Shown here one piece after another: positions 31,667 through 58,844 of a DNA stretch of 64,000 bases. The notes beneath the pieces are model-generated. The model saw only the letters and a program-made list of their open reading frames with translations. It did not search any database and was not told where the DNA came from. The translations under genes were made by a program, and so were the position numbers. Source of the stretch: Patescibacteria group bacterium (GTDB lineage Bacteria; Patescibacteriota; Minisyncoccia; Phycocordibacterales; UBA918); NCBI GenBank assembly GCA_019745315.1, contig JAIETH010000001.1, positions 13,049-77,048 of the forward strand. Direction: 5' to 3'. Every line of letters starts with the position of its first letter. Positions within the stretch are counted from its first letter, which is position 1.

Positions 31667-31667
31667 T

Positions 31668-40902: not shown

Positions 40903-40978
40903 TACTATTTTATCGTAAAAGGCTACGCACTCCGTCCATTTGTTTCAAGCGAAGCCTCGTTTATAATTGAGAATAATC

Positions 40979-43671: not shown

Positions 43672-43722
43672 AAATAAGGTACAAAAAAATACGCACTGCG
43701 TATTTTTTTGTACCTTATTTTG
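43672..43722 (+). terminator. long-stem rho-independent terminator after clpB
   Basis: aaataaggtacaaaaaaatacg-cactg-cgtatttttttgtaccttattt. Confidence 0.6.
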
Positions 43723-44143
43723 TATCGGGTTTGTGTATTCCTGCAACTTTAAAATTTATATAGAGATTCATAAGGTAATTCCATATACCAACAAATCCTG
43801 CAATACCAATTCGACTTACCAGATAGTTCCATTCGAGGATGGTTGTCATGATATACATAAGCCCCATTATGACTAGCAGTCCAGTTGTTCCTATTGTCAG
43901 AAAGGCTACGTAGGTACGAGCAATAGTCTGTTGTGTTTCTGGAAATACAATCCTTCGAACAATAAAATATTGAATTGATGTCGCAATAACAAATGCAATT
44001 CCTGCTGCAATTACCTGGTTTTGAGAAAAAACATCAACCAGTATAAAAAGAAGAAGGAGGTCAAAGCCAAATGCGGTACTGCTGATGAGAGTGTATTTCG
44101 CAAAGCGTTTAATGCTTGCGACTCGTTCATGGCTCAATATCAT
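43715..44143 (-). CDS. GtrA-family membrane protein
   Basis: Four TM helices and the N-terminal KYTLISSTAFGFDLLLLFILV motif typical of GtrA. Confidence 0.65.
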   Translation of the reverse strand: MILSHERVASIKRFAKYTLISSTAFGFDLLLLFILVDVFSQNQVIAAGIAFVIATSIQYFIVRRIVFPETQQTIARTYVAFLTIGTTGLLVIMGLMYIMTTILEWNYLVSRIGIAGFVGIWNYLMNLYINFKVAGIHKPDTK

Positions 44144-44205
44144 ATGTGTACTATATCAGGGAGAGGTATGGAATAAAAAACACCAGTCCAGTATGGTGTT
44201 TAATG

Positions 44206-44568
44206 TTAGAACAAGTCAGGTGGCTGAAAGCAGTAGATCTGCACCGTTCCGTCTGTATATATCGTATAGAAAACAATGGCGTGTCCCGCAAAAGGTGATG
44301 GGTCGTCCGGTTTCGGATCGAGCATTCGGTTGGCTGGCACGGTATGCCAGGTGTTTCTGATGCGCACTTGGTACGACCTGTCTGGTGCGATGCGCCACTC
44401 AACATCGGTGAGTACGTGTAGATCATACAGCGCGCAGCACTTGGTGTTGTCGAGGGCGCGCTGTCTATCGAGCCACTCATTGTGAGCAGAATGATCGATA
44501 TGTGCGTGCGTTGTGTGTGCCGCAAGTGTAGTTACAAGGATCAAGAGCCAAAGAAGAATGCGCAACAT
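44206..44568 (-). CDS. secreted hypothetical protein
   Basis: Signal peptide MLRILLWLLILVTTLAAHTTHA. His-rich N-terminus. Confidence 0.4.
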   Translation of the reverse strand: MLRILLWLLILVTTLAAHTTHAHIDHSAHNEWLDRQRALDNTKCCALYDLHVLTDVEWRIAPDRSYQVRIRNTWHTVPANRMLDPKPDDPSPFAGHAIVFYTIYTDGTVQIYCFQPPDLF

Positions 44569-44673
44569 GTCACGTCCTCCGTTTTGGGTTGCCTGTGTAC
44601 GAGTGTACTCGCTTATTTTGGAAATGCAAAAGTGATAAAGCTGTATATAAAAAAACCAGCTATCAAGCTGGAT

Positions 44674-45285
44674 CTAGGTTGCGTAGGAGGCAATCGCCTC
44701 TCGTATTTTTTCTTCCATCAGAACAGCATATTCCGCCCACGTACCACCAGCATCTTTAAGTGCTGTGATCAGGAGGGGGATGTGATACATCGTCGTTTCT
44801 TCTATCTGAGTCGCTCGCTTTTCTGCTGAACAGGCGCTCATTGTGCGGAGGTTGTGGAGTCGGTCTGCGAGTTTCGCAAACACAGCCCGAGGTCCTCGCG
44901 CGATAACTCTCCCGAGATATTCTTCCGTCGTCTCTTTTCCTTTCGGAAGTTTTGTGAGAGCGCGAAGGTCTTCAGCACGTTCCGTGCCGAAATTCATCGC
45001 TGTTCGATACGGCGAAAGCAGATAGGTGTCTTCGGGAAGGTCATGCAGGAGGATATTGATAATCACCTCCGGATCTCTTCCATTAAATTCGGAGATATAG
45101 ATCCATGCCGCTGCCTTCGGGTGATCGAAGTATCGCGTACCATCTTCTCGCTGTACGCCGCTGTGGCCGTACTTTGAAATAAGGTACGCAAACTGTACTC
45201 GCTCGTATATCGTGGGGTCGAACGCAATTTGAAGTGGAGCAAAAAAGAGCTCATACCCCGGAGGGCGTTTCTGCCACTGTTTCAT
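44674..45285 (-). CDS. HD-domain (p)ppGpp hydrolase-like protein (small alarmone hydrolase, RelA/SpoT HD family)
   Basis: HDLPEDT matches the HDVVEDT motif of the SpoT/Mesh1 HD domain. Upstream His and downstream Asp are present. 203 aa. Confidence 0.65.
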   Translation of the reverse strand: MKQWQKRPPGYELFFAPLQIAFDPTIYERVQFAYLISKYGHSGVQREDGTRYFDHPKAAAWIYISEFNGRDPEVIINILLHDLPEDTYLLSPYRTAMNFGTERAEDLRALTKLPKGKETTEEYLGRVIARGPRAVFAKLADRLHNLRTMSACSAEKRATQIEETTMYHIPLLITALKDAGGTWAEYAVLMEEKIREAIASYAT

Positions 45286-45459
45286 TTCCGTGTCTCCCTG
45301 TAAAAGAACGGGTAGGTGCTTTTGAGCACTCTATATTCAAGAGTAGTTAAACATTTCTCAATCGCAAAAGCTAATTTGAATAACGGTATCTCTATATAGA
45401 TTAAAAATAAAAAACTCGAGAGCAAAGCCAAAATGACTTCTTCTTTCGAGTTGTGGTGG

Positions 45460-46128
45460 CTATGCGGCGAGCTCCATCTCGCCACGTTCCGGATGCCACA
45501 TCCGGAGGGGAACGAGCGATGGCCGGACGCGCAGTCGTTCGACCGCCGCCTCAGCTTCGCGTTGGTTGAAGATGAAAAGCGTGACCGGCAAGAAGCTCGT
45601 CGTCATCGCGGTGTGGATGCTCGCCGCATTTGCGCCATCACGCCGCCCGACGCGACCAGTGCCGATCTGCACGATCGAGTGCTTGCGTGCATGTGATTCC
45701 GGCTGCTGCCACAGGTAGTCCATACCGAAGCGTACGTGCATATCAGCTCCGACCCAGCCGCCGGACCCCAGGTGGTGGCAGATAATCATGTGAAGCAAGC
45801 GGCGGTCATCGAACTTGAAGCTGAGGACAGACCCCAAGTTGACGGGGTTGGCGGCGGTGATCCGTTCAATGAACGGACGTCCGATCCCAACCACATCCTG
45901 GAGCCTGCTGTTCATGCCGATGACGATATCGGCAGGATTTTCGCTGGAGGTGATATCTCCAGTGACGATGTCGGTGATCATTGACCGTCTCCCTGTTGTT
46001 GGTGGTCGAACGTAGAGTATCTGAATTAGAGTCAAAGTCAATTTATTGAAAAAGCTAACATTATCTCTATTAAATAAAAAATCCCACATACGTTTGGTAT
46101 GTGGGTTGGCAATTGTGCACGGCTTCAC
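45460..46128 (-). CDS. macro-domain-like protein on a GC-rich segment
   Basis: ITDIVTGDIT...ADIVIGMN...GIG...LLHMIICHHLGSGGW aligns with the GDIT/VNAAN/GGGV/HTVGPVW blocks of macro domains, but is degenerate. The likely start is the internal Met near 45981. Confidence 0.4.
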   Translation of the reverse strand: MKPCTIANPHTKRMWDFLFNRDNVSFFNKLTLTLIQILYVRPPTTGRRSMITDIVTGDITSSENPADIVIGMNSRLQDVVGIGRPFIERITAANPVNLGSVLSFKFDDRRLLHMIICHHLGSGGWVGADMHVRFGMDYLWQQPESHARKHSIVQIGTGRVGRRDGANAASIHTAMTTSFLPVTLFIFNQREAEAAVERLRVRPSLVPLRMWHPERGEMELAA

Positions 46129-46129
46129 G

Positions 46130-46636
46130 TTATGTTTTTTGGAAGTTGTAGATGGGGTTCACGCCATCTCTCCATCCGATTACTTGCGGATTATTCGGGT
46201 CTGCGATTTCTATGCCGCGAGGATAGAAGACGCAGGCCATCCAGCCCGCCGAAAAGGGAACTCGTCTCGGAAATACGACACACAGAAGCTTGTCGCCTTC
46301 GTCGCTGTGAAGTGCTTGCGATCCACCGATTTCGTTGAACAGGAACATGTTGAGATTGAGATTTGTCGGAACCCAGCCCCATTTTTTCATAAGCCCATGC
46401 CGTTGCCACGTATGGCACGATTCAAACTCTCCGACCCTGAAAAGTCCCTCCTTCATGCGAAACATCACATTCTTGACGCGAGTATGGATGATCGCGTCCT
46501 TCGGTTTGTAGAAAATATCCCACACCGAACACGGGTTGAAGAGGTCGAGCTGGAGCATCCCGTACATGTTGTACGGAAGACCATACTGCTCCAGGGAAGC
46601 CATGAGGAGTTGAGTCCTCAATACACCTGCGTTCAT
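46130..46636 (-). CDS. hypothetical protein immediately upstream of, and abutting, the macro-like gene
   Basis: 168-aa ORF with protein-like composition. Abuts the macro-like gene (overlap/gap of ~1 nt). Confidence 0.3.
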   Translation of the reverse strand: MNAGVLRTQLLMASLEQYGLPYNMYGMLQLDLFNPCSVWDIFYKPKDAIIHTRVKNVMFRMKEGLFRVGEFESCHTWQRHGLMKKWGWVPTNLNLNMFLFNEIGGSQALHSDEGDKLLCVVFPRRVPFSAGWMACVFYPRGIEIADPNNPQVIGWRDGVNPIYNFQKT

Positions 46637-46798
46637 AAGCTTATTCCCCCTCAGGAATGTTCTGCGCTATTGCGCAACCGTTTGCATATAAACACATTTT
46701 TTATAATACGTCAATAATACGCTGAAGGAGAAATATCTTTCTAATTTGTTACGCACAAGCCTTCACGCATGAGCTTGTTATGAGGCTATACTTATACT

Positions 46799-47521
46799 AT
46801 GAAAACGAAAGCGGCGCGGTTGTTTGTGGTATTGCTTGGATTATATCTTTTTCTGTTTAATATTTTTCTTACACTTGCAAGCATTGGAGATACAAACAGT
46901 ATGGCCATTGCTGCTATGGTGTGGGGACTGATGATTGTATGGATTGTATGCGCAGGTGCACTTATGTATATCTTTCGCGATCGTATACGTAGTGTTGTGC
47001 AGTGTATACCGCTTCCGTGGCAGGTGACGTTTGTGCTTGGTGCAACAGCACTCGCGCTGATAGAAGAAGCTGTAACTGTTTCACTTACTAATATGGCGCC
47101 ACTCTTTGGTGCTGTAGCAGGAGAGGCGTATATAACTGCAACTACAAATTATGTAGATCTCGTACTATTTCATAGCGTCATTATTTTTATTCCTCTATTT
47201 ATCGCGTGGTCTATTGTCCTTTCAAAGTATCGTTTCAGTCCTTTTTCAGTCTTTCTTCTTTTTGGTATTACAGGAATTCTCTGCGAGATATCGTTTGGTG
47301 GCCCACAGCAAGTTCTAGGGTTTGCACAATGGATTTTTGTGTACGGACTTATGATATATCTGCCAGCATATTCAATTCCAGATAATCGAAATGCAAAAAC
47401 AGTGAGGCTCTGGCATTACGTCGCAGCTATTCCCGCAACGCTCCTAATTGCGCTCCCAATGCTTATACCTATCGTATATGTCATCACAAAGATATTACAG
47501 CACCCAAGTATTCATTTTTAG
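46799..47521 (+). CDS. polytopic membrane protein
   Basis: Six to seven hydrophobic helices. No motif recognised. Confidence 0.4.
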   Translation: MKTKAARLFVVLLGLYLFLFNIFLTLASIGDTNSMAIAAMVWGLMIVWIVCAGALMYIFRDRIRSVVQCIPLPWQVTFVLGATALALIEEAVTVSLTNMAPLFGAVAGEAYITATTNYVDLVLFHSVIIFIPLFIAWSIVLSKYRFSPFSVFLLFGITGILCEISFGGPQQVLGFAQWIFVYGLMIYLPAYSIPDNRNAKTVRLWHYVAAIPATLLIALPMLIPIVYVITKILQHPSIHF

Positions 47522-47882
47522 TTAATGGTGTGTGAGGTAGAAAAAATAAAAAACAGGAAGGGTATTCCTGTTGTTATGATTCTCGCACAGTGATGTACTC
47601 AAGATCTTCGGGTATGAAGCCGAGATCTTTCCAGGTCACAGTGCCGCTTGCCACGAGTCCTTCGACTTCGTTTCGGAAGTCTCGAAGGGATGTGGGGAGA
47701 GGAGGGCATCCGCGCATAGTGCGGTACTCCTCTTGAAGCAATAGAGCATCGGTAGGCAGCTCGTTGGGAATCATACCGCTCATTTTTGCACCTCGACCAA
47801 TGTCCTTGAGAACTCTATCATTTCGTTTTTATGATGAAAAGTATGTCGTGAGTTGTAATAGTCTAATGGGACACTACGCTTT

Positions 47883-48632
47883 GTGTTACTATTTAAATAT
47901 ATGAAAAAATACCTTATAGCTATTTGTGGATTAATAATAACTTGTATTTTATTGGTCATTTCTTACATCACATATACAAAAAGCGAATTATTGGAGGATA
48001 CGGATAAAGCTTCGGTAACTGTAGTAGATGATAAGGTTCCTACTTCAGCTAAAAGTGACATTGTAGAAACAAATAAAATTCAAAAAACTGATACTAGCAA
48101 ACAAAATGTAGTAACTGCAGCAACTGATACAAGTAAACCAGTTGAAAACAAGGTTCAAGTATTACCTCAAAATACTACGAACGTACTAACCGTGGCTAAG
48201 ATTTCTCCTGATTCAAATTTTGTTATTTCACAAAGCTCAGATATTGAGCCAAAACAAATACCTTTTAAAGTTTTTACAAATTTAGCTCAATCTTCGGTTA
48301 ATGATTATCAATATTGTGTTTCGATCTTAAAAGACGGAACAAGAGCTTCAGAGACTGATTGTGCAAAATTAGATAAGAATCTAGAAATTGATACAAAAAT
48401 TGGTATAACTGATTTAAATTTGGCACCTTATCCAGTAACAGATACGTATCCTGAGGGTGGTTATATTTCAATTGGAGATAATCAACTTGAAATCATGGTG
48501 GCTTTGGTAAAAGACGACCCTAATTTAGTTTATAAAATATCGGGCGATACTTCTCAAAATATGAAAGTTTTAATGGACAGTGCATTAACTATAGAAAAAA
48601 CCGGTGTCTTCACGCTAACTGTTACAAAATAA
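47883..48632 (+). CDS. secreted/anchored hypothetical protein
   Basis: N-terminal TM helix. Thr/Ser-rich beta-type composition. Confidence 0.4.
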   Translation: MLLFKYMKKYLIAICGLIITCILLVISYITYTKSELLEDTDKASVTVVDDKVPTSAKSDIVETNKIQKTDTSKQNVVTAATDTSKPVENKVQVLPQNTTNVLTVAKISPDSNFVISQSSDIEPKQIPFKVFTNLAQSSVNDYQYCVSILKDGTRASETDCAKLDKNLEIDTKIGITDLNLAPYPVTDTYPEGGYISIGDNQLEIMVALVKDDPNLVYKISGDTSQNMKVLMDSALTIEKTGVFTLTVTK

Positions 48633-48889
48633 ATCTAAAGCCTTCTGTAATCGTAGTTCTGGTTTCGAGTTTTTAAATTTTCCTATAAAAATACCACTGC
48701 AAAGTAATAATACTTTTTTGTGCGCCGGGAAGAAATTTTGATCCTTACAGGATCTGTACACCTTTCGTATTTTCTCAAAGCAAAGCTTCTCGAAAATATA
48801 CTCAAGGTCTTCAAATCCTTCACAGAAGCAAAATTATTTGCTTCTTCCGGTGCACATTTTAAAAGCACCCATTAGGGTGCCTTAAAATG

Positions 48890-48972
48890 TGCGCCGGGAA
48901 GGATTTGAACCTTCGTAGCCCGGAGGCGACAGATTTACAGTCTGTTGTAATTGACCACTCTACCACCGACGC
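48890..48972 (-). tRNA. tRNA-Tyr (anticodon GTA)
   Basis: GCGTCGG...ACAGA-CTGTAAA-TCTGT, long variable arm, GAAGGTTCAAATCCTTC-CCGGCGC-A. No encoded CCA. Confidence 0.88.
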
Positions 48973-49039
48973 ATGTAACGGATAGCACATTTCGCAATGT
49001 GCGTGGGTATACGGTAGCACAGGTTTCAGTCGGGGGGAA

Positions 49040-49945
49040 GTGTGCGAAACTCCTCGCATACCTCAGCGATTGAATGGTATTATTTTAATACGTTATATGG
49101 GCTACCGAGCGGTTATCTTTTCTTTTTTTCTCTTCCTGGTACCACTTGTATTTGTGTATGGTGCGCCGATAGTGCCTCCTCCTCCTTCAAGCGGTCTTGG
49201 ATATAGGGCATGTGATCTGTTGACACTCGTTAACAACGTCATGAAGTTTCTCATATATATAAGTGCGTTTATCGCTGTGCTTCTTGTTGCGTTTGCAGGA
49301 TTTAAGTCAGTGATTGGGGGAGAATCCGCAGAATTAGGAAGTCTCGCTGTTGCGATTGGTGGTGGAATTCTCCTCATGCTTTCTGGGTGGCTCATAGTGG
49401 ATACGGTCATAAAAGTATTTACCGGAGGACGTTTGGGGCCATGGAATTCAATACAGTGTGTTGAGAATTACGAAATAAGCAGGACTACATTTGTTCCTTT
49501 GAGTGGTACAGGTGGCGGAGGTGGGGTGATACCAGGACTTGCTCCCCAGGGAAGAGGAAACTGTTCAGCAGAAGCTCTTACTCCGGTTTTCGGGAGTCAG
49601 GCGGCAACTTTTTCTTGTATCGCACAGCGAGAAAGCGGGTGTAATCCTGGGCTACCGAGCGGTGTCGATGTGGGCGCAGATGGAAACGCGGTTTCGTTTG
49701 GTTTATATCAGATAAATATCAGCGCACACCCAATGGTGTGTGATGGTCAGAGGGTAAACTGTCCTGCTGCATTTTCTTCGATGTATACAGCTCAAAATAG
49801 AGGTGTGAGAGTGGTGAACCAAGAGTTATATATACAGTGTCGTGCGCTTGCGACAAATGCGAACTGTAATTCACAAACAGCACAGTCATTGTTTCAGCGT
49901 AATGGATTGAATCCGTGGCGAGCGCAGAATAATAGGTGCTTCTAG
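49040..49945 (+). CDS. VirB2/TrbC-like pilin domain fused to a lytic-transglycosylase-like (SLT) domain
   Basis: N-terminal block ACDLLTLVNNVMKFLIYISAF...two TM helices is shared with 51058. The C-terminus has AQRESGCNPG...VSFGLYQINIS (the E-S...GLMQ SLT motif). Confidence 0.5.
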   Translation: MCETPRIPQRLNGIILIRYMGYRAVIFSFFLFLVPLVFVYGAPIVPPPPSSGLGYRACDLLTLVNNVMKFLIYISAFIAVLLVAFAGFKSVIGGESAELGSLAVAIGGGILLMLSGWLIVDTVIKVFTGGRLGPWNSIQCVENYEISRTTFVPLSGTGGGGGVIPGLAPQGRGNCSAEALTPVFGSQAATFSCIAQRESGCNPGLPSGVDVGADGNAVSFGLYQINISAHPMVCDGQRVNCPAAFSSMYTAQNRGVRVVNQELYIQCRALATNANCNSQTAQSLFQRNGLNPWRAQNNRCF

Positions 49946-49960
49946 TTCAATAAATACACT

Positions 49961-50512
49961 ATGTCTAACAAAATTATTTTTATACTGATAGCGCTGGTAG
50001 TAGTTATGGCTTTGGGGCTTGGAGTAACTTTGTTTATGAGGAATTTACAAAACCCCGAGGAGCCTACTCCTTCGTTTGAATTTCCAGGCGGGAGCACGAC
50101 TCCACCGACAACGTCAGAAAACACGATTCCGGCTGCTGATACCATGTCTATTCAAAATGCTGAGAACGCTACCGTTTCAATTCGTGATTTTAAAAAAGAC
50201 CCTACAGTGATCGCTGACCCTAATAATGCTGGTCAATATATTATCTCGGGAGGTATTGAGCCATCATATGAAAAAAATGCATTCAGTATTATCTATGTGC
50301 CCATTGATCAAAGTTTCACCGTCACTCTGTTGCAAGAGCCTTTGAATGAATCTCGCGAAAAAGCAGAAAAAGAATTGCTAGAAAAATTGGGGATTGGTCA
50401 ATCAGAATTGTGCGCATTGCGGTATGCGGTCTATGTCCCTCGTTTTGTGAACGATGTACTTGCGGGAGAAAATCTTGGATTTAGTTTTTGTCCAGGCGCA
50501 ATTCCGCTTTGA
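49961..50512 (+). CDS. membrane-anchored hypothetical protein (paralog of 50546-51070)
   Basis: N-terminal TM helix. Shared C-terminal architecture (…ELCALRYAVYV…). Confidence 0.4.
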   Translation: MSNKIIFILIALVVVMALGLGVTLFMRNLQNPEEPTPSFEFPGGSTTPPTTSENTIPAADTMSIQNAENATVSIRDFKKDPTVIADPNNAGQYIISGGIEPSYEKNAFSIIYVPIDQSFTVTLLQEPLNESREKAEKELLEKLGIGQSELCALRYAVYVPRFVNDVLAGENLGFSFCPGAIPL

Positions 50513-50545
50513 TCGTATGGTATCGTATACACTATAGATAAGACT

Positions 50546-51070
50546 ATGATGAAATATCTCCTCATTGTGTTTTTTGGTCTTATGGCAGTCGGAGCAGCTG
50601 GCTATGGAATTTATATCGCAGCTACACAAGACCTGACTACTGAAGAGCCTCCTCTATCAGAGCCTATTACCGTCTTTCCTGTTCCGGCACCCGATACCGT
50701 ACAAGGCGGTTTTATGTTAGTTACAACACGAGATGAAGATAAGGTGCGGGTTGCTGATGTGCGTAAAAATCCTCTTGAGGTACAGATAGATCCTGACACA
50801 GGGAAGCCAATTTATACTCTTGTGTCTTCGCGGTGGGTAGATGGTAGGGGGGAAGGGTATGGACTGGCATTTGATGAGGGCTTTGGACTCTTTGTGGTAA
50901 CGGTGCATGAAGACTCATCTGGTACACAGCAGATACTTGCTGAACGTGAATTGCTTCGACGACTTGAAGTTTCCACTAAAGATTTTTGTCGATTACAATT
51001 TTATCTAACTGTCGTAGAGGCAGACGGATCATGGAGTGAGAGCACGAAACCTTCGCTATGCAATTTGTAA
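50546..51070 (+). CDS. membrane-anchored hypothetical protein (paralog of 49961-50512)
   Basis: N-terminal TM helix. C-terminal …DFCRLQFYLTVV… block. Confidence 0.4.
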   Translation: MMKYLLIVFFGLMAVGAAGYGIYIAATQDLTTEEPPLSEPITVFPVPAPDTVQGGFMLVTTRDEDKVRVADVRKNPLEVQIDPDTGKPIYTLVSSRWVDGRGEGYGLAFDEGFGLFVVTVHEDSSGTQQILAERELLRRLEVSTKDFCRLQFYLTVVEADGSWSESTKPSLCNL

Positions 51071-51939
51071 AACCTCTTAAAAAGATAGCCCAGATTGGTA
51101 TCTATGTCGGCGTACTTTTCTGTGTGCCACTATTGATGTTGGCTGCTGAGCGTCTTGTGCCCTGTGAGGGGAATGCATGTCGGGCATGTGATGTACGAAC
51201 GCTCTTAAAGAAGCTGATCGATTTCATGATCATGCTTGGCGGGTTTATCGCAACTATCCTTCTTATGTTTGCAGGGTTTACCATGGTCACCGCTGCAGGA
51301 AATATGGGGAAGATTGAGGAGGCAAAAAGTACCTTTAAAGCAGTCATTATCGGTATGTTTATCATACTTACGGGCTACTTAATTGTAGATACCTTCATGA
51401 AAACATTTGTAACGGGAAGTGTTTTTAATGGAGCTCCTTGGGATAACATAACCTGCGTACCAAACCCTTTAATTGAACGAACTCCTCCTGCTGCCATTGG
51501 AGGAGGTGGAACTGTGGTTGGAGGAGGTTCGACTGTTGGAGCTACTCCTGGGGATGTGGCTGCTTTGCAGCAAGCAGGCGTCACTGTTCAGTCGGGTGTC
51601 AATATGAGTCAGGTGAGTGGAAGTAGAATAACTCAAGCTGTTGAGATGGCGAGCGCATGTAGTATCGCAAATGGGGGAACTGCAACATCTAATGCGTGCG
51701 GTGTTCAAATTAGCAGTGGGTATAGAGCTGGCAACGGTCAGTCAAATCACGGAAATGGTACTGCGGTGGATATTTCTGGACGTAACGAAACATTTAATAG
51801 GTGGATGAATAGCCAAACAGCAGCACCATCTGCCTTCGGAGGATATAGGACAATTAATACAGGGCAGGGAGCATGTACCTGGCATCCTAACGAGGGTGGG
51901 GGCGGATATCACTGGCATTGCTCAGATACAGGAAGGTAG
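51058..51939 (+). CDS. VirB2/TrbC-like pilin domain fused to a peptidase M15-like (D-Ala-D-Ala/L-Ala-D-Glu peptidase) domain
   Basis: N-terminal block ACDVRTLLKKLIDFMIMLGGFIA...two TM helices. The C-terminus has SNHGNGTAVDISG and GGGYHWHC (the H-x6-D ... H zinc triad of M15). Confidence 0.5.
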   Translation: MQFVKPLKKIAQIGIYVGVLFCVPLLMLAAERLVPCEGNACRACDVRTLLKKLIDFMIMLGGFIATILLMFAGFTMVTAAGNMGKIEEAKSTFKAVIIGMFIILTGYLIVDTFMKTFVTGSVFNGAPWDNITCVPNPLIERTPPAAIGGGGTVVGGGSTVGATPGDVAALQQAGVTVQSGVNMSQVSGSRITQAVEMASACSIANGGTATSNACGVQISSGYRAGNGQSNHGNGTAVDISGRNETFNRWMNSQTAAPSAFGGYRTINTGQGACTWHPNEGGGGYHWHCSDTGR

Positions 51940-52002
51940 TTCGCGGGTTTTGATTGACTAAGCACACCCTTTCACATACCATTCCTTTTGAGGAGATATT
52001 TC

Positions 52003-52076
52003 GGGCGATTAGTTTAGTGGTAGAACATAGGTCTCCAAAACCTACGGTGGGGGTTCGATTCCCTCATCGCCCGCCA
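52003..52076 (+). tRNA. tRNA-Trp (anticodon CCA), CCA-3' encoded
   Basis: GGGCGAT...TAGGT-CTCCAAA-ACCTA...GGGGGTTCGATTCCCTC-ATCGCCC-G-CCA. Confidence 0.9.
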
Positions 52077-52181
52077 AGTCGTGCTAGCACGAGACGCTAG
52101 GAATAAAACTTATAATTCAAATTTAAGTGACAAGTTTTATTTAAAATGAAATTATAAAATATTAACTTTAATAGACTATTT

Positions 52182-52676
52182 ATGAATATAATTAATTTCC
52201 TAGATTTTACAGACCCGCTCGTAATAATGTTTACGGTAGATTTGTTTATTGCACTGGTTATCGGTTTTATAATTGGCGCAGAAAGAGAATCGCGAGGTAA
52301 AGACGCTGGAATCAGTACACATACATTTGTAATTGTTGGCGCGATGTTGTTTACGTTTCTTTCAATGGTTGTTGATCCAGCCTCTAAATCTCGGATTGCT
52401 GCTCAAATTGTTACTGGTATTGGTTTCTTGGGAGCGGGTATTATTCTCAAAGATGGAGCACAAGTTAGAAATTTAACTACTGCTGCTAGTATTTGGTTTG
52501 CCGGAGCAATCGGAATGGCTATTGGTTTTGATTATCATGAAATTGCTATTATTGCTGCGATAGCATCAGTTTGTATTCCTCGCATCCCTCATATCAGTAG
52601 CAAAAAAACGAGGCAAGGCAGTAAAAAAAATACTAACGAGGAAGAAAAAGACGCAATGCAATTTAGTGACGATTAA
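52182..52676 (+). CDS. mgtC: MgtC/SapB-family membrane protein
   Basis: LVIGFIIGAERESRGKDAGISTHTFVIVGAMLF is the MgtC signature region. Confidence 0.75.
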   Translation: MNIINFLDFTDPLVIMFTVDLFIALVIGFIIGAERESRGKDAGISTHTFVIVGAMLFTFLSMVVDPASKSRIAAQIVTGIGFLGAGIILKDGAQVRNLTTAASIWFAGAIGMAIGFDYHEIAIIAAIASVCIPRIPHISSKKTRQGSKKNTNEEEKDAMQFSDD

Positions 52677-52763
52677 TAGTATTGCATGAGCGCCAATTGG
52701 CGAATATTTGTAATTAATTAGAATAGCCAAAATAACATTAGATCAACTAAGAAAAAGCCGGAT

Positions 52764-53444
52764 ATGAAATCTATTATTACTAACCCATGGTTTGAGCGAT
52801 TAGTACTTGCTATCATCGTGGCCAATGCTATTACTCTTGGACTTGAAACCTATCCCGCCATTATGTTGGCGTACGGTAGCACTTTAATGAAGCTAGATTT
52901 GGTTTTTGTCGGGTTCTTTGTAATTGAGCTTTCGTTGCGTCTTTCAGTTTTAGGTCGCACGTTTTGGCAAGACGGATGGAACTGGTTTGATGCGACAGTG
53001 GTTGGGTTAACGGTTCTTCCATTTTTAGGAGTGAGCGGGATTGGTAACGTATCGGCTTTTCGAGCAGTCCGGCTTTTACGTGTTCTGAGCATTATTCCAT
53101 CTTTTAGACGGGTACTCGCGGGTATCGGCCGAGCACTTTCAGGAAGCTTTGCAGTAATGGCAGTATTAGCTGTAATTCTTTATGTATATGCAGTTGTGTC
53201 GGTAAAACTTTTTCGTGATGTAAGTCCTGAAAAATTTGCCGATCTAGGAACGTCGTTTTTTACCTACTTTCAAATTATGACCCTCGATGCTTGGAGCGAC
53301 ATCGTACTTCCTATTATGGCTGTGTACTGGTGGGCGGGAATGTTTTTTGTAAGTTTTATTGTAACAGCTGTATTTATCTTACTGAGTATCCTCATCGGTG
53401 TAGCTAGTAACGCAATGAATGAAAATGACACTGAGAAAAAGTAA
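52764..53444 (+). CDS. voltage-gated ion channel, BacNaV-like (single 6TM repeat)
   Basis: S4 with Arg every third residue (FRAVRLLRVLSIIPSFRRV). Pore loop FTYFQIMTLDAWSDIV, compared with TLESWS(M) in NaChBac/NavAb. Confidence 0.7.
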   Translation: MKSIITNPWFERLVLAIIVANAITLGLETYPAIMLAYGSTLMKLDLVFVGFFVIELSLRLSVLGRTFWQDGWNWFDATVVGLTVLPFLGVSGIGNVSAFRAVRLLRVLSIIPSFRRVLAGIGRALSGSFAVMAVLAVILYVYAVVSVKLFRDVSPEKFADLGTSFFTYFQIMTLDAWSDIVLPIMAVYWWAGMFFVSFIVTAVFILLSILIGVASNAMNENDTEKK

Positions 53445-53537
53445 TTATTTATTGAACGTATTTAAAGTTTGTATGTTTGATGCAAACTAACTTTTTTATT
53501 ATTTAAAGTAAGTTGAGAATTAAAACTAGAAATAATC

Positions 53538-53668
53538 TACCTTTTCTGTTTAAAAGTTCCATCTTTGAGCAAAAACTTAATACACCTCCTAATATCTATA
53601 TCTTCGACTTCAAAGTTAACGCCCTGCCCAAGCAAGAATGCATTTAATCTTTTACGCCCTACACGTAC
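53538..53668 (-). pseudogene. 3'-terminal remnant of a second serine recombinase gene
   Basis: Minus-strand translation ...AFLLGQGVNFEVEDIDIRRCIKFLLKDGTFKQKR* aligns with the C-terminus of the intact recombinase (…SVLGQELNFEIGDIDIKPYIKFLLKDGTIEEKR…). The rest of the gene is absent. Confidence 0.55.
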
Positions 53669-53689
53669 AAAATTGTATATCCAAATCTA

Positions 53690-54025
53690 TTAATAATTTA
53701 TCGCTTTTCGTTTTTTAGGTTCGGGTAACTCATCAAACGTAATTTGTATAAGTTTACTTAACCAAACATGATCTTCAATCTTTTCACTATCAATTTGAAT
53801 TGAAGGCTTTGCCCCAGGACAGGCAATGCCTTCAATATAATCGTTACCTAGATATTTTTGTCCTCCGACTGTCCTTTTTATAAACAATGTATCGCTACAA
53901 ATAAGACCTACTACTTTTCCTTCTTTATACAATGCATATTCGCCAAACATTTTCTTTACAGTGATAGCTCTTAGGTCAACCAGTTGATCTAAAATGTATT
54001 CAACTGTGCTGGGGCCAGTTGCCAT
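53690..54025 (-). CDS. TfoX N-terminal-domain-like protein
   Basis: LRAITVKKMFGEYALYKEGKVVGLICSDTLFIK matches the TfoX_N pattern (MFGG.glY...la.v.dd.LylK). Confidence 0.5.
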   Translation of the reverse strand: MATGPSTVEYILDQLVDLRAITVKKMFGEYALYKEGKVVGLICSDTLFIKRTVGGQKYLGNDYIEGIACPGAKPSIQIDSEKIEDHVWLSKLIQITFDELPEPKKRKAINY

Positions 54026-54031
54026 GTTTTT

Positions 54032-54445
54032 TTAAAATAAACCCAATGCAAAACTAATTACTCCACCCATAAAACCCACAGTTGCAACCGCAGCAATAAT
54101 GTCTGCAATAATTGGTTTAAAGTTATTGAAAAGATGAGATGTGGCGTACCAGTATGTACTCGTCATAATAGAAATCATGCCTCCGATAAATCCTCCAATT
54201 AAAACACCTTCCGCTAGGGTATTTGTTTCTGTCCACTGTGTGAATAGGATGGTGAGAAGTAACGAATATGCGACACAGGAAATGAAAAGCCAGATTAAAC
54301 TCGATTCAGCGTCACTTTTCTTAAAACCTTGAGCAGAGGTCATGTTATTTGCCATGAACTTGCCGAGTGCGAATTCAAATACAAACCACCCGATAATGAA
54401 ATAGCCAACTGCACCCAGGGCTGTTGCGGTAATTATTTCTAGCAT
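54032..54445 (-). CDS. four-helix membrane protein
   Basis: Hydrophobic 137-aa ORF. Confidence 0.4.
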   Translation of the reverse strand: MLEIITATALGAVGYFIIGWFVFEFALGKFMANNMTSAQGFKKSDAESSLIWLFISCVAYSLLLTILFTQWTETNTLAEGVLIGGFIGGMISIMTSTYWYATSHLFNNFKPIIADIIAAVATVGFMGGVISFALGLF

Positions 54446-54486
54446 ATACGAATTATTATATACTTAATTTAATGGTCTTATCTTGT

Positions 54487-55809
54487 TTAATGCAATGATA
54501 TCTGTTTATTTTGCAATAGTATTTCACTTTTAAAACACGACATAATCTCTCGCTTCTCTTCAATCGTCCCGTCTTTAAGTAAAAATTTTATATACGGCTT
54601 AATATCTATATCTCCAATCTCAAAGTTAAGCTCCTGACCGAGCACAGACGCTTCAAATTTCTTATACCTCGTTACTTCAGCCGCGATCTGTTTTTTAACC
54701 GTTAAGTCATGTATGGCTATCGTATCGACTAGACTTTGCAGTTGCTTAATGAGTTCTGTCTCTGAAACATAACCACACGGACAATGTTTATCTATTGCTC
54801 TAGTGCAACCGTAGTAGACATGAACGTTCATACCACCACCTTTCAGCTTTTTGTATTTCTCACTAGCACTAATACCAGATCCGCATAGACCACATTTCAT
54901 AATGCGAGTGAAGGCAAATTCATGGTCTGCTCGTGTCTTTAGCTCATTTCCCTTAACTTGAGCTTGTACCAGATCAAAAAGTTCTTTGGTGATAAGTGGT
55001 GCATGTTTACCCTGATACCAATTGCCACTGTTTTTAGGATATTCAAAGACTCCGTAGTAGAAGTGGTTATCAAGGATTTTGTAGATGTTACCGAGGCTCA
55101 AATGCTTCTTGCTCGGCAACGCTCTGAAATTCAGCTCGAATTTAAGCCAGTTGTATACTTTCCTGCCACTCCACTTTTCATACGCTACTTTTTCAAATAC
55201 CTGTTTAATCACCTGTCCTCTCTCAGGATCAATGTATGTCTCACACTTCCTATCCATGCGTTTTTCTTTTAGATAACCAGTTGGTGCAGGTGCCGGCCAT
55301 AAACCCATTTCAACTCTGGTCTTTAGTCCACGCTTCACATTAATACTTTTGTTGTCGTTTTCTAGCTTGGCTTGAGAACACAGAATCATCAAGAGAAACT
55401 TCTCACTCGGTGTGTTCGTAAATGTTTGTCCGTATGTGCGTATTTCACGGAGTAGATGTTGATCCATGAGATCAACGAGTGAACCGAGGTCACCTGCATT
55501 TCGACTCAATCGGTCTGGATGCCAGACAATAATGCCGTTGAAGCGTTCTCGTCTAATGTCCTCAAGTATTTCTTTAAAAACTGGTCGTTGCCCTGAGTCC
55601 TTTGCAGAATGTGACTCACGCCTAATCTCTACAATCTCCAACCCTTCACGTTCTGCAATTTCACACATCTCCTTAACTTGAGAGTCGATGGAAAGAGCTT
55701 GTTTCTCATCAGACTCAGTACTTTTGCGTGCGTATAGTAGGTACTTAACGGGCACTTTTGGTACATCAGTCTTTACTCCAAAGTTGTTCATTACTTGCGT
55801 TTCCATCAT
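54487..55809 (-). CDS. large serine recombinase (resolvase catalytic domain + recombinase domain + zinc ribbon + coiled coil)
   Basis: YARKSTESDEKQALSIDSQ catalytic Ser region. GIIVWHPDRLSRN. Recombinase-domain zinc ribbon CGLCGS...C..CGY. 440 aa. Confidence 0.85.
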   Translation of the reverse strand: MMETQVMNNFGVKTDVPKVPVKYLLYARKSTESDEKQALSIDSQVKEMCEIAEREGLEIVEIRRESHSAKDSGQRPVFKEILEDIRRERFNGIIVWHPDRLSRNAGDLGSLVDLMDQHLLREIRTYGQTFTNTPSEKFLLMILCSQAKLENDNKSINVKRGLKTRVEMGLWPAPAPTGYLKEKRMDRKCETYIDPERGQVIKQVFEKVAYEKWSGRKVYNWLKFELNFRALPSKKHLSLGNIYKILDNHFYYGVFEYPKNSGNWYQGKHAPLITKELFDLVQAQVKGNELKTRADHEFAFTRIMKCGLCGSGISASEKYKKLKGGGMNVHVYYGCTRAIDKHCPCGYVSETELIKQLQSLVDTIAIHDLTVKKQIAAEVTRYKKFEASVLGQELNFEIGDIDIKPYIKFLLKDGTIEEKREIMSCFKSEILLQNKQISLH

Positions 55810-56002
55810 TAATTAATGACAGACCTGCACGAGATGCATAGCTATGCAGACTAAGAAATACGTCACATACTCGCTGATTGTCCTTAGCAAAAGTGCAAAC
55901 ATGCGATAGAGTGAAATCGGTAGCAAAATCTGCTATTATTGTTCTCGAACAATTGAATATTAGACCTAACCCCTTAAGTCTCTTGAGGATATGGTCGCAA
56001 AT

Positions 56003-56145
56003 CCGTCCAAAGTAAAAAGCTCCTAATCAGGGCTACTTTGGACGGTCATATCGGGAAACTGGTATGGGCATATCTCACGGGGTATGTCGGCTTGGTTAGG
56101 AGCTTTTTGCTATCTGATCAAATTATTAAAAACCGTCCAAATAAT
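56003..56145. promoter_or_regulatory. nested inverted repeats/operator-like motif cluster in the divergent intergenic region next to the recombinase gene
   Basis: IR1 ccgtccaaagta (56003-56014) / tactttggacgg (56035-56046). IR2 aaaagctcctaa (56015-56026) / ttaggagctttt (56096-56107). A third ccgtccaaa copy lies at 56133-56141, directly before the ATG at 56146. Confidence 0.4.
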
Positions 56146-56646
56146 ATGAATACAATCAAAAAATGTCCTAAGTGCCAAAAAGAGGTCGATGCAAAAGCAA
56201 CTAAGTGTCCGTACTGCCAGTCAGACACAAGAAGCTGGGTAAGACAGCATCCAATCGGAGTGTTCCTGCTCTTTCTCATCTTTTTACCAATCGTTATCAG
56301 TCAGATCAATGCTGAACCAACACCAGTGCAGACTCCAGCTCAACAAATTCATGAAGTGAAGTTTCAAAGTGCAAGAATTCTTGCAAAGTCACACATAGAG
56401 AAAATTCCCCTTACTTCACCATCGACAGCAAAATACAATCCACCGACTACAAAAGTTGACCCAACAGATCCGAATCTTTTTGAAGTTTCGTCATACATAG
56501 ACAGTCAAAACGGATTTGGTGCAATGGTTCGTACATATTGGTCAATGAAGCTTAAGTTCAAAGGTGAAGATACTCAAGAATCAGTCGAAACAGATGCAAA
56601 CTGGGAAATCGTTGAGTTCACTTTTGACGGCGAAAAGATTAAGTAG
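56146..56646 (+). CDS. zinc-ribbon membrane protein
   Basis: CPKCQKEVDAKATKCPYCQ zinc ribbon followed by a TM helix. Start trimmed to MNTIKK at 56146. Confidence 0.4.
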   Translation: MNTIKKCPKCQKEVDAKATKCPYCQSDTRSWVRQHPIGVFLLFLIFLPIVISQINAEPTPVQTPAQQIHEVKFQSARILAKSHIEKIPLTSPSTAKYNPPTTKVDPTDPNLFEVSSYIDSQNGFGAMVRTYWSMKLKFKGEDTQESVETDANWEIVEFTFDGEKIK

Positions 56647-57109
56647 TTTTAGAAGCGTCTTTCTGCGGAATCCATCTATCCAGCATCTCTCTCGCTCTCT
56701 TTACTGCATTAGCAGCTTTTTCTGCACTGTCACGGTTTAGCTTTTCTTCCATCTTTCTCTTGTTCTGATAATGGGTCTCAATTCGTTTTTGCTCAAATTG
56801 ATCATTTGAGGCATCTCGATGTCTGAATGGCATTTTGTATGCTTCGTGCCTATGACTTAACCAGTACTTTGTGTATGCAGCATCTTTATTTTTGATGCCA
56901 GTAAGGACATTGCTTTCTGCCACATCATTTACCAAACCCACACCAAATCCCATAGCCTTATTCACCTCATTGAAGCTGTCTTCGCTTTCATTCATCCACC
57001 GATAAAACGTCTGACGAGAAATGCCAAACTTTTCACAAACCACTTGAATAATAGGAGTACGTTCTAGCTCTTCTAAAATCTTACTCCATAACACTTTAGT
57101 TTTCTTCAT
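56639..57109 (-). CDS. HTH protein resembling a phage terminase small subunit
   Basis: KILEELERTPIIQVVCEKFGISRQTFYRWMNE is a terminase-small/transposase-type HTH. A basic coiled-coil C-terminus follows. Confidence 0.4.
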   Translation of the reverse strand: MKKTKVLWSKILEELERTPIIQVVCEKFGISRQTFYRWMNESEDSFNEVNKAMGFGVGLVNDVAESNVLTGIKNKDAAYTKYWLSHRHEAYKMPFRHRDASNDQFEQKRIETHYQNKRKMEEKLNRDSAEKAANAVKRAREMLDRWIPQKDASKTT

Positions 57110-58532
57110 GTGACTGGACCTTTACTTTGAGACCAGTCAGCTTCTCATAGCGATTAATAATAAGATCGCAGAAGGCTGGTTCAAGTTCACAACCGTACAC
57201 TCTTCGACCAAGAGCGTTACCTGCGATTAAGGTACTTCCAGAGCCAAGGAAACTATCGAGAATGATGTCGTTCATCTTAGTACAGCGTTTGATCGCTTTC
57301 TCATGAAGACATGGTGGTTTAGACGTAGCGTGTTTATAGTCTTTGGCGGCTAAACGCTTGGCGGTCCAGATATCTATAAAGTCGTCAACCTCGCTAAGTA
57401 AGTTGTTGCCTGTGCTAAGTTCTTTATTCATCACTTCGTTAAGGTTGGTAATCGGTTCTGCCAAATGTGGTTTGCCACGAGTTCCGTATACCACAGGCTC
57501 GTATACCTTATTGAACGCCACGCCAGGTACGGGGTTCTGGTTATTTTTCAACCATAAACACACTCGCTTATTGCTGATTCCGAGTTGCCTGTATATCTCC
57601 TGTACAACCCCGATAAATACTTGATCGCACCAGTAGAAAACATGAGTATCTTTATTTGATACCGCTAAGGCTGACTCCATACTATCTTTGAGAAACTTCT
57701 GGTATTCAGCAAACGTTCGTTTATCTTTTACATTTCCTCCATAGTCTTGCTTTCCTCCAATACCGCCGTTGTAGTCGATGTTGATGTTATAGACGGGGTC
57801 AGAGTAAATCATTGAGACTTTCTCATTGCCAAGGAGTCGCTTTAGAGTTTCTGGCTTAGTAGAGTCGCCGCAAATAACCCTATGCTTGCCGAGAGTAATA
57901 AGGTCACCAAGTTTCGTCTTTGGCTCTACAATCTTCTTTAATTCTTTTTCTTCGTCAAAACTATCGTCGGCAACCTCTGTCTCTTTGTCGTAGATGTCTG
58001 ACAACTCAATATCGTCAAAACCACCAAACTCAAGTGCACCCATTTCAAATCCTTTGAGTAGATCGAAATCCCAGTCGCCACCAAGCTTGTTAGAAGCGAT
58101 GAGATACTCGTCTGATTCTTCTTTAGTTAGCTTACGGTTCGGAACTCTTACATCAATAATTTCATCACCACGATTAAGAAGCTGAAGGGCCTTGATTCGT
58201 TGATGGCCTGCAAGGATAGAGCCATTAGCATCTATGGCAGGTATTTCTACTAAGTTGTATTTCTTCAGGCTTCGCTTCAAGTCCGACATTTGTTTGTCGG
58301 TAATAGAGCGAGGGTTAACGTCTTGAGGGATAAGATCATTAACTCGCCTTTGGGCTGTTGCCCATATAAGTTTTTTCATACCTACACTACGTTTACTATT
58401 TTTAAGTTTGGCTGCGCCCAGTTTCAGGGGGCAATTGTTATCGCAGTCTTTACGTGTGGTATGAAATGTATCTATAACAAGTTTATCAATTTGATAAACT
58501 ATGTCAATGGGTTTATACTGGGGATATGTCAA
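57096..58532 (-). CDS. ParB-like nuclease domain fused to a beta-class N4/N6 DNA methyltransferase
   Basis: ParB/Srx motif EIPAIDANGSILAGHQRIKAL. MTase motif IV SDPVYNI (DPPY-like). Motif I DSFLGSGST lies near the C-terminus (beta-class order). Confidence 0.75.
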   Translation of the reverse strand: MTYPQYKPIDIVYQIDKLVIDTFHTTRKDCDNNCPLKLGAAKLKNSKRSVGMKKLIWATAQRRVNDLIPQDVNPRSITDKQMSDLKRSLKKYNLVEIPAIDANGSILAGHQRIKALQLLNRGDEIIDVRVPNRKLTKEESDEYLIASNKLGGDWDFDLLKGFEMGALEFGGFDDIELSDIYDKETEVADDSFDEEKELKKIVEPKTKLGDLITLGKHRVICGDSTKPETLKRLLGNEKVSMIYSDPVYNINIDYNGGIGGKQDYGGNVKDKRTFAEYQKFLKDSMESALAVSNKDTHVFYWCDQVFIGVVQEIYRQLGISNKRVCLWLKNNQNPVPGVAFNKVYEPVVYGTRGKPHLAEPITNLNEVMNKELSTGNNLLSEVDDFIDIWTAKRLAAKDYKHATSKPPCLHEKAIKRCTKMNDIILDSFLGSGSTLIAGNALGRRVYGCELEPAFCDLIINRYEKLTGLKVKVQSHEEN

Positions 58533-58783
58533 AGAAACTATCTTTTAAGCAACTCGACATACAAATTGGTCAGAAAATTAAAGGGTGTCGTCAGAAAGCA
58601 AATTACTCGCAAACCAATCTTGCAGAGTTGTTGAAATATGAATCACCAACAGCAATTTCATTAATTGAAAGTGGTGAAAGAAGCCTAAAAATTCACGATC
58701 TTATTATTCTCTGTCAACTCTTTGATAAAGATTATAATCACTTTATTGGTCGTCCGTCTGAACATAAAAATAGGATAATTTAG
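58526..58783 (+). CDS. XRE-family helix-turn-helix regulator
   Basis: QIGQKIKGCRQKANYSQTNLAELLKYESPTAISLIESGER is a Cro/C1-type HTH. Confidence 0.6.
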   Translation: MSKKLSFKQLDIQIGQKIKGCRQKANYSQTNLAELLKYESPTAISLIESGERSLKIHDLIILCQLFDKDYNHFIGRPSEHKNRII

Positions 58784-58844
58784 TAGGACTACTCACATAC
58801 CAGATAAGTTCGAGATACTAAGCTAAAAATGGTAAAATCGAGTT

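Follow-up and report, generated by a model that had tools for sequence, protein, structure and literature searches.

A conserved Patescibacteria gene cassette that fuses VirB2-like pilin modules to putative cell-wall hydrolase domains

A 64,000-nucleotide stretch of a Patescibacteria genome (assembly GCA_019745315.1, contig JAIETH010000001.1, positions 13,049 to 77,048 of the forward strand), which we call the window, contains four plus-strand genes, here named A, B, C and D, between a tRNA-Tyr and a tRNA-Trp gene. We found that the first and last of these genes encode proteins in which an N-terminal module homologous to the VirB2-like pilins of Pfam family PF18895 is fused to a C-terminal domain of a wall-cutting type, lysozyme-like in A and a putative zinc peptidase in D. 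The two genes between them encode a pair of anchored paralogs. With moderate confidence, we propose that the locus is an operon for a membrane-tethered, extracytoplasmic peptidoglycan-cutting pair, and that this pair is a pilin-anchored equivalent of the VirB1 hydrolases of type IV secretion systems (T4SSs). Wall hydrolases associated with T4SSs are known, as are the VirB2-like pilins of the candidate phyla radiation. The pilin-hydrolase cassette appears to be new. We found no published description of it, and no mention of pilin-hydrolase fusions or of the B family in the literature that we searched, including a survey of T4SS components in Patescibacteria (PMC12102498) and a 2025 review of T4SSs (PMC12857230).

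Results

The proteins encoded by A and D share a module with VirB2-like pilins

Gene A (282 amino acids, 49097-49945, plus strand) encodes a signal peptide, a VirB2-like two-helix module, a Gly-rich linker and a Cys-rich domain of the SLT_3 type. Gene D (293 amino acids, 51058-51939, plus strand) encodes a signal peptide, a PF18895 module, a Gly-rich linker and a small LAS/M15-like domain. The N-terminal halves of the two proteins are 38% identical over 131 amino acids (E=1e-22). This match spans the signal peptide, a short Cys-containing segment, two long hydrophobic helices, a short polar loop and a GPW..I.C motif. In A, alignment with D and with five small pilins of the window places the helical hairpin at approximately residues 36-122 (49202-49462, plus strand), ending at the GPW..I.C motif.

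D scores 30.8 bits against PF18895 (T4SS_pilin), above the gathering cut-off of 26.6 bits, and matches TrbC/VirB2 at E=1.2e-4. A alone reaches only a weak 16.5 bits against TrbC, but across the module it shares 38% identity with D. Most fused relatives of A and D score 29-45 bits against PF18895. The five small proteins, which form an array at 31220-33210 (plus strand) and are stand-alone relatives of the modules in A and D, all pass the PF18895 cut-off (29-41 bits). They align with both A and D across the hairpin and share 19-31% identity with the N-terminus of A. The anchors of A and D are homologous to PF18895 pilins. The initial annotation of the window had proposed a shared VirB2/TrbC-like block in A and D that resembles the proteins at 31-33 kb, and the PF18895 scores and the alignment bear this out. 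Similarity due to generic signal peptides was also considered and is ruled out, since the 131-residue match includes both helices and the PW..C residues. Searches of PHROGs and NCBIfam with A and D returned only weak matches to pilin-like conjugation proteins (the Mbov_0395 family and TcpD).

The fused proteins have features of their own. A conserved A-x-A site precedes the pilin module, and an AlphaFold2 model of D contains helices at residues 39-78 and 83-122, with predicted local distance difference test (pLDDT) values of about 68-85. A Cys after helix 2 is kept in 85 of 86 fused proteins, and 92% have a Trp before it. Between the signal peptide and helix 1, 84 of the 86 proteins have either one or three Cys, so that the total is even. 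Inspection of the five free pilins of the window showed that this Cys pattern is missing from them. The Cys parity, odd before helix 1 and one after helix 2, suggests that one or two disulfides staple the outer ends of the hairpin together, which would place both ends outside the membrane. In VirB2 and TraA pilins, both termini lie outside the membrane, on the outer face of the filament.

A ends in a lysozyme-like domain with an invariant Glu

The C-terminal domain of A (approximately residues 152-282, 49550-49942, plus strand) has eight Cys, the motif CIAQRES with Glu179 (49631-49633) and the motif GLYQIN. In a profile search of the PDB with this domain, the best 60 of 199 matches (E<=1) were all C-type lysozymes, the best at E=2e-5, and hhalign against human lysozyme gave a probability of 87.6%. 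Alignment with human and insect C-type lysozymes pairs the A domain with Glu35, the GIFQIN segment and the positions of Cys30 and Cys116.

Six aligned homologous C-terminal domains all match the Pfam family SLT_3 (PF18896; best E=7.8e-9), and three of them also match SLT (E=2.8e-6). We assign A to SLT_3 as a divergent member by transitivity, because the other five aligned domains match this family. Precomputed Pfam annotation records the same two-domain architecture, PF18895 plus PF18896, in the homolog P0006. A single-sequence PDB search with P0006, which represents the SLT-hitting subtype, gave no match. Residues E179, G202 and Q205 of A are invariant in the alignment with its homologs, and the Glu of CIAQRES and the Gly and Gln of GLYQIN are invariant across 28 diverse domains. 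Its sequence thus places the C-terminal domain of A in the lysozyme superfamily, with a conserved Glu. The initial annotation had pointed to an E-S...GLYQIN motif and an SLT-like domain. The motif is present and its catalytic Glu is invariant; the superfamily assignment also stands, but the Pfam family is SLT_3 and not canonical SLT (PF01464), to which A has no significant match (E=0.11, 12.5 bits against a cut-off of 21.3).

The position equivalent to Asp52/53 of lysozyme is Ser in A and is non-acidic (Ser, Ala or Thr) in the family members that we inspected. Therefore, the domain is more likely to be a single-Glu enzyme of the lysozyme superfamily. Its sequence fits a lytic transglycosylase as well as it does an inverting muramidase. 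The eight Cys indicate an extracytoplasmic location.

By sequence, the nearest solved structures to this bacterial SLT_3 domain are animal GH22 lysozymes rather than SLT/GH23 proteins. The SLT_3 domain might thus connect lysozyme families in evolution.

D ends in a putative zinc peptidase domain

The C-terminal domain of D (approximately residues 165-293, 51550-51936, plus strand) contains SSGYR, SNHGNGTAVD (which fits SxHxxGxAxD) and HWH, in the order found in M15/LAS zinc peptidases. The putative zinc ligands are His231 (51748-51750), Asp238 (51769-51771) and His285 (51910-51912), all on the plus strand. H231, G234, D238, H285 and W286 are invariant in six D orthologs, so the H-x6-D...H triad proposed in the initial annotation is present and none of its candidate ligands is lost. 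The HWH motif fits the HxH pattern of LAS enzymes, but its second His is not kept in all orthologs.

Comparison with other genomes is informative for this domain. A one-genome-per-species scan with the B motif yielded 70 loci, which carry L numbers here. In L004, L027 and L038, the protein at the position of D has the same pilin module and scores 49-56 bits against VanY; that of L071 was detected by a hidden Markov model (HMM) of the VanY type. The L004 protein also matches PDB entries 5zhf and 2vo9. These VanY-type proteins share with D a C-terminal HW....GR ending. Because proteins at the same position and on the same module are clear VanY members elsewhere, we consider the D domain a probable zinc peptidase.

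B and C are anchored paralogs

Gene B (183 amino acids, 49961-50512, plus strand) encodes an N-terminal anchor helix (residues 3-29), a Pro/Thr linker and a globular domain (residues 61-183) with two near-invariant Cys. The C-terminal peptide NLGFSFCPGA..L is almost invariant. Gene C (174 amino acids, 50546-51070, plus strand) is a divergent paralog of B, with the same layout of an anchor and two Cys. C matches B at E=3e-7 in BLASTP and a B-family HMM built without C at E=8.4e-11. By these comparisons, the paralogy of B and C is genuine though remote, and each has a single predicted membrane anchor, as the initial annotation had described the two middle genes.

All 67 B homologs are Patescibacteria hypothetical proteins without a Pfam domain. 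Pfam searches with 49 members of the family gave no consistent match, and searches of PHROGs and NCBIfam with B gave nothing informative. The AlphaFold2 model of B has a mean pLDDT of 89.8, and Foldseek found nothing below E=0.18 for this model in the PDB and BFVD. Among the loci compared, a second B-type gene occurs only in the window and in L001.

The cassette has a conserved position in Patescibacteria genomes

The open reading frame (ORF) of A occupies 49040-49945 and opens with a GTG at 49040. The likely start is the ATG at 49097, because the homolog P0001, which is 95% identical to A, begins at the equivalent Met. Intergenic spacing is 15 nucleotides between A and B and 33 nucleotides between B and C, and C and D overlap by 13 nucleotides; this layout is compatible with a single four-gene operon. 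A scan for promoters and terminators returned counts not above those in shuffled sequence. Minus-strand ORFs inside the interval are all <=102 amino acids, and we found no support for any of them.

The upstream boundary is tRNA-Tyr (GTA; 48889-48972, minus strand) and the downstream boundary is tRNA-Trp (CCA; 52003-52076, plus strand). Both were detected by ARAGORN and by Rfam (RF00005, 60.3 bits for tRNA-Tyr; 71.6 bits for tRNA-Trp), and they are the sole Rfam matches within 48000-52600. These searches confirm the bracketing tRNAs noted in the initial annotation. One or both also flank the cassette in most related genomes.

How widespread is this arrangement? We searched a full-length A-type profile against 1.84 billion representatives. 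The profile gave 30,981 matches at E<=1e-3, and about 454 matches, each standing for a cluster at 50% identity, reached E<=1e-30. Almost every one of the best 150 matches spans the whole profile, in a protein of 280-350 amino acids. The 70 loci found with the B motif are nearly all labelled Patescibacteria (Paceibacteria/Parcubacteria, Adlerbacteria, Kaiserbacteria and Nomurabacteria), and a few bear other labels. At 59 loci there was enough DNA upstream of B for an HMM census, which found a pilin-lysozyme fusion as the immediate upstream neighbour of B, on the same strand, at 57 of them. One further upstream fusion, in L030, was seen by eye and brings the count to 58 of 59.

A further pilin gene follows downstream in 15 of the 67 loci with downstream DNA, and in 14 of these 15 it is a fusion (at least 230 amino acids). 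The C-terminal domains of the downstream fusions are of the VanY type, the HWH/HWD mini-LAS type seen in D, a Cys-rich SCHYGG type, or a type resembling CHAP/NlpC-P60 with sub-threshold Pfam scores. The peptidase domain of the second fusion is modularly exchanged between genomes.

The Cys-rich type, present in L013, L018, L024, L061 and L070, has the pattern ISSISD...SCHYGG..C.G.SYAVDFGD...HLHVS..G..CGCN and no Pfam match. It may be another LAS-type metallopeptidase.

Across loci, the gene order is ClpB, tRNA-Tyr and/or tRNA-Trp, A, B, in some cases the pilin-peptidase fusion, MiaA (minus strand), AhpC, tRNA-Leu, ParB and RelA (minus strand). In the window, ClpB (40967-43663, plus strand) is the conserved upstream anchor of this synteny. 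tRNA-Tyr is equally placed in L001, L002, L005, L007, L009, L010, L014, L016, L029 and L037, and tRNA-Trp lies on one side or the other of the cassette in most loci that we checked. We considered that the cassette might be a tRNA-flanked genomic island and ruled this out, since the same two kinds of tRNA and the same neighbouring genes flank it in dozens of species. The tRNAs are therefore part of the ancestral arrangement and not the borders of an island. Moreover, tblastn of A against plasmid and phage collections gave no match, which argues against a mobile conjugation module. The A-B pairing is strict and the synteny fixed; the cassette is widespread and vertically inherited in Patescibacteria. 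The fusion of a pilin-like domain to a VirB1-type function, described as unusual in the initial annotation, is indeed unusual relative to characterised T4SSs, but it is common in Patescibacteria, where it forms about 454 clusters and has a conserved genomic site.

Links to pilin arrays and to a T4SS locus

In one locus, L078, the cassette is joined to a pilin array. The gene order there (754-8582) is a methyltransferase, a solute-binding protein, BipA, A, B, three small pilins and a double pilin. The array of the window is likewise preceded by a methyltransferase (29371-29910) and a solute-binding protein (29912-31210). Since the A-B pair of L078 is contiguous with an array, the two loci that are separate in the window form one cluster in this genome. 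L078 is the only linkage of the cassette to a pilin array that we found.

An S-adenosylmethionine-dependent methyltransferase and an SBP_bac_8/SBP_bac_1 protein precede the small-pilin arrays in both the window and L078. This suggests a larger conserved neighbourhood around PF18895 pilins. Within the array of the window, the first small pilin (31220-31666) has four tandem copies of GGSVTP(Q/G) between its signal peptide and its hairpin.

A second link comes from Candidatus Southlakia epibionticum, in which the T4SS locus SEML1_0006-0019 was reported to be essential (Wang et al. 2023, PMC10633639). According to the supplement of that study, SEML1_0006 is lysozyme-like twice over and has a Cys proteinase match, and SEML1_0007 has structural matches to M15B peptidases. 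SEML1_0008 is VirB4-like, SEML1_0010 PrgI, SEML1_0012 NTF2-like and SEML1_0013 VirB6-like, and SEML1_0014-0019 are PF18895 pilins (PMC10633639). This locus pairs lysozyme-like and M15B-like proteins with VirB4 and PF18895 pilins, which is why we interpret the cassette as a counterpart of VirB1 that is anchored by a pilin module.

The surroundings of the cassette in the window

The window departs from the conserved gene order on both sides of the cassette. About 5 kb (43700-48880) lie between ClpB and tRNA-Tyr, which are adjacent in related genomes, and GC content peaks at 0.505 at 44-46 kb. This insert holds an ORF with weak similarity to RelA/HD-domain proteins (44674-45285, minus strand) and a secreted-looking protein of 249 amino acids (47883-48632).

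On the 3' side of tRNA-Trp (52100-63700), the usual MiaA-AhpC-ParB-RelA block is absent and GC content falls to 0.37-0.40. The genes here include an MgtC-like gene (52182-52676), an ion-transport-like membrane protein (52764-53444), a large serine recombinase (54487-55809, minus strand), an N6/N4 DNA methylase (57096-58532, minus strand) and an AAA-type protein of 1611 amino acids (58845-63680). This region may be an integrated element at tRNA-Trp or the result of a rearrangement there.

A few kilobases from the PF18895 array lie type IV pilus genes (24305-28588, minus strand), including a PilB-like ATPase (T2SSE, 381 bits), a PilC-like T2SSF protein, a prepilin with an N-methylation motif and a 499-residue protein with LVIVD repeats. 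An overlapping pair of small ORFs resembling a toxin-antitoxin pair (28721-29282) is located between these genes and the array. A tRNA cluster at 35.3-37.1 kb (tRNA-Leu, Lys, Leu and Cys) contains an ORF (36468-36962, minus strand) with an HNH-endonuclease-like motif, C..C...LELDHINGINTDNRIENLRILCPNCH.

Discussion

We found that a cassette with a fixed place in the core genome of many Patescibacteria encodes predicted wall hydrolases that are built onto pilin modules. How might such proteins work? A and D would be exported by the Sec pathway and cleaved at the conserved A-x-A site. Their two long helices would then insert into the membrane with both ends outside, as in VirB2 and TraA, and a disulfide staple, predicted from the Cys parity, would hold the ends of the hairpin together. 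The flexible Gly/Pro linker would keep each catalytic domain pressed to the wall, with one enzyme cutting glycan strands and the other peptide stems; the identity of the domain is firmer for A than for D, which is placed at the level of motifs. Because the anchor is homologous to free pilins, we propose that the enzymes are recruited to, or co-assemble with, a pilin- or T4SS-like structure, at which the wall would be opened locally. By analogy, this would be the job done in monoderm T4SSs by the VirB1-type proteins PrgK, TraG (pIP501) and CwlT. We infer muralytic activity, the out-out topology, the tie to a T4SS and the partner or regulator role of B. As a partner of the glycosidase A, B would most likely position or restrain it. 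The combination of a glycosidase with a peptidase appears to be general, judging from the VanY, LAS-like or CHAP/NlpC-P60-like domains of the downstream fusions.

The cassette shares features with the VirB1-type hydrolases of monoderm systems and differs from them in several ways. PrgK (pCF10), TraG (pIP501), CwlT (ICEBs1) and TcpG (pCW3) combine an anchored glycosidase with a CHAP, NlpC/P60 or LytM peptidase (PMC12102498). Like these proteins, the cassette appears to have both classes of wall-cutting domain, and its relatives swap in CHAP/NlpC-P60-like domains. However, its two predicted activities are on two separate proteins, the anchor of A and D is a VirB2-like hairpin instead of a single transmembrane helix, and the glycosidase of A is of the Cys-rich SLT_3 type and is accompanied by a B family partner. 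Furthermore, the cassette lies outside any T4SS cluster, between ClpB and MiaA/ParB.

A similar mixture is seen in comparison with other proteins. A and D belong to the same family as the pilins of Patescibacteria PF18895 arrays such as SEML1_0014-0019 and, like them, have a signal peptide and two long helices. In contrast to these pilins, which are stand-alone proteins of about 90-150 amino acids, A (282 amino acids) and D (293 amino acids) are about 290 amino acids long, with the predicted Cys staple, the GPW..C motif and catalytic-type C-terminal domains of 130-150 amino acids each. By their listed annotations, SEML1_0006 and SEML1_0007 represent the same two enzyme classes in association with PF18895 pilins. 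Unlike A and D, they are unfused, are encoded beside virB4, are listed under other lysozyme families (PF18013, PF01832) and have no PF18895 match listed. Like GH22 and SLT/GH23 enzymes, A has C-I-A-x-x-E-S followed by G-x-F/Y-Q-I-N, but it lacks the second catalytic carboxylate of GH22 (Asp52/53). D has SGYR, SxHxxGxAxD and a C-terminal His in the same order as the M15-LAS enzymes VanY, VanX and Ply500. It differs from VanY in that the segment between SGYR and SxH is about 6 residues long instead of about 35, and in that HWH replaces the Glu of ExxH.

Several observations weigh against our proposal. The curated Pfam models do not accept either catalytic domain. A scores 20.9 bits against SLT_3 as a full protein and 24.6 bits as the domain alone, below the cut-off of 27, and the D domain scores 13.3-15.7 bits (E=0.013-0.039) against VanY (PF02557), M15_3 and M15_4, for which the cut-offs are 23-25. 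Thus, of the M15-like end originally proposed for D, the invariant triad stands but support from Pfam thresholds does not. D also has no Glu at -3 and thus lacks the catalytic Glu of the ExxH motif of VanX and VanY. A D-type profile found no match at E<=10 among PDB sequences. When a D-type protein was compared with a VanY-type ortholog by hhalign, only 15 residues aligned, those of the SxHxxGxAxD motif, at a probability of 2%, and an HMM of true VanY-type orthologs found nothing significant in D-type proteins beyond one motif. An AlphaFold2 model of D from a 4-sequence alignment (pLDDT 64) returned only helical-bundle noise when searched against the PDB with Foldseek. The genomic context is also unfavourable, as the cassette sits among the housekeeping genes ClpB, MiaA, AhpC, ParB and RelA. 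VirB4, VirD4, VirB6 and PrgI were not found adjoining the cassette in the scanned ORFs of the 64-kb window, among the annotated neighbours of L001, L002, L004, L005 and L007, or among the nine ORFs scanned in L078. The neighbouring VirB4 or VirD4 to which the initial annotation looked is therefore missing near the cassette in the window and in those five annotated loci, and of the compact wall-breaching or secretion apparatus that it envisaged, an accessory wall-hydrolase module fits the data but a self-contained secretion apparatus does not, as the cassette, the window and those five loci have no ATPase or channel gene for one. Finally, the role that we give to B is a guess.

The absence of VirB4 and VirB6 nearby makes a housekeeping role a serious rival, even if a somewhat unlikely one. 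A and D could be autolysins for growth, division or turnover, with the pilin hairpin as a mere two-helix anchor and B and C as regulators. Other autolysins are controlled by EnvC/NlpD and IseA. This explanation gains from the core-genome position of the cassette and from its synteny with ClpB, MiaA, ParB and RelA, which is strict in dozens of species, as well as from the lack of adjacent T4SS genes and of tblastn matches in plasmids or phages. In addition, most genomes keep only A and B, with 52 of 67 loci having no downstream pilin gene. However, the anchor is not generic: it passes the PF18895 threshold, and the full hairpin with its family-specific motifs is kept across 86 proteins. Moreover, the A-B pair of L078 directly adjoins a pilin array, and the same enzyme pair lies inside the T4SS locus reported to be essential in S. 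epibionticum.

The enzymes could instead be directed at another cell. A and D might be minor pilins that co-polymerise with the small PF18895 pilins, giving a filament that bears the enzymes along its surface or at its tip and digests the wall of the host bacterium where the two cells touch. B and C would then be membrane-anchored immunity or inhibitor proteins that shield the wall of the producer. We regard a weapon of this kind as unlikely. The outward-facing termini of VirB2 and TraA would allow a C-terminal domain on a Gly/Pro linker of about 30 residues to be displayed, and the strict A-B adjacency resembles that of effector-immunity pairs. B is predicted to be extracytoplasmic, has no catalytic motifs and ends in the highly conserved NLGFSFCPGA peptide; the window and L001 hold two B-type genes and two hydrolases; and the peptidase domain is swappable. 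Nevertheless, most genomes with two hydrolases have a single B-type gene, and the fixed core location and vertical conservation are unlike those of polymorphic toxin loci. If every subunit carried a domain of 130-150 amino acids, steric clashes would result, and A and D could thus be incorporated only rarely. We also found no report, in the literature that we read, of filament formation by a Patescibacteria PF18895 protein. The explanation also assumes an episymbiotic lifestyle for the lineage. In its boldest form, enzyme-bearing minor pilins would make a "wall-drilling" pilus against host peptidoglycan, and B and C would be anchored inhibitors with a new fold that protect the producer. We found no catalytic T4SS pilus of this kind in the literature that we read and consider this version more doubtful still. 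By far the least credible explanation is an accidental resemblance, in which generic signal peptides and helices combine with chance motifs in unrelated or non-coding ORFs. The sub-threshold Pfam scores of both catalytic domains speak for it, but it is ruled out by the match between A and D (E=1e-22 over 131 amino acids), by the score of D above the PF18895 cut-off, by the hundreds of full-length homologs with invariant putative catalytic residues, and by the A-B order, with the operon arrangement kept in about 60 species.

What would a pilin-anchored VirB1 equivalent mean for Patescibacteria? This is a very large and mostly uncultured group. Growth of Ca. S. epibionticum on its host was reported to require a T4SS-like system that includes VirB2-like pilins (PMC10633639). 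This bacterium is the single species tested genetically, and its T4SS locus is the only one in Patescibacteria to have been tested experimentally. In a survey of 3,035 genomes, VirB2-like pilins were identified with the PF18895 and PF04956 models (Quinonero-Coronel et al. 2025, PMC12102498). Most VirB2-bearing Patescibacteria genomes had no recognisable VirB1, from which it was proposed that pilus biogenesis may not need VirB1 (PMC12102498). Our findings suggest an alternative, at least for Paceibacteria/Parcubacteria, in which wall-cutting enzymes are fused to pilin modules. Profile searches label such hydrolases simply "pilin" because of this fusion; D itself is identical to the NCBI protein P0008, which is encoded on a contig of 315,805 bp and is named "pilin [Patescibacteria group bacterium]". 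The fused hydrolases would fill the VirB1 gap of VirB2-bearing Patescibacteria.

By the Rosetta-stone principle, the fusion ties pilins to wall hydrolases. The locus also defines a strictly co-inherited partner family, B, which has a confident predicted fold without a match in the PDB or BFVD. A link to an episymbiotic lifestyle, first raised in the initial annotation, is plausible. If it is true that the enzymes act on the host wall, they would give direct molecular access to the way in which episymbionts open the cells of their hosts.

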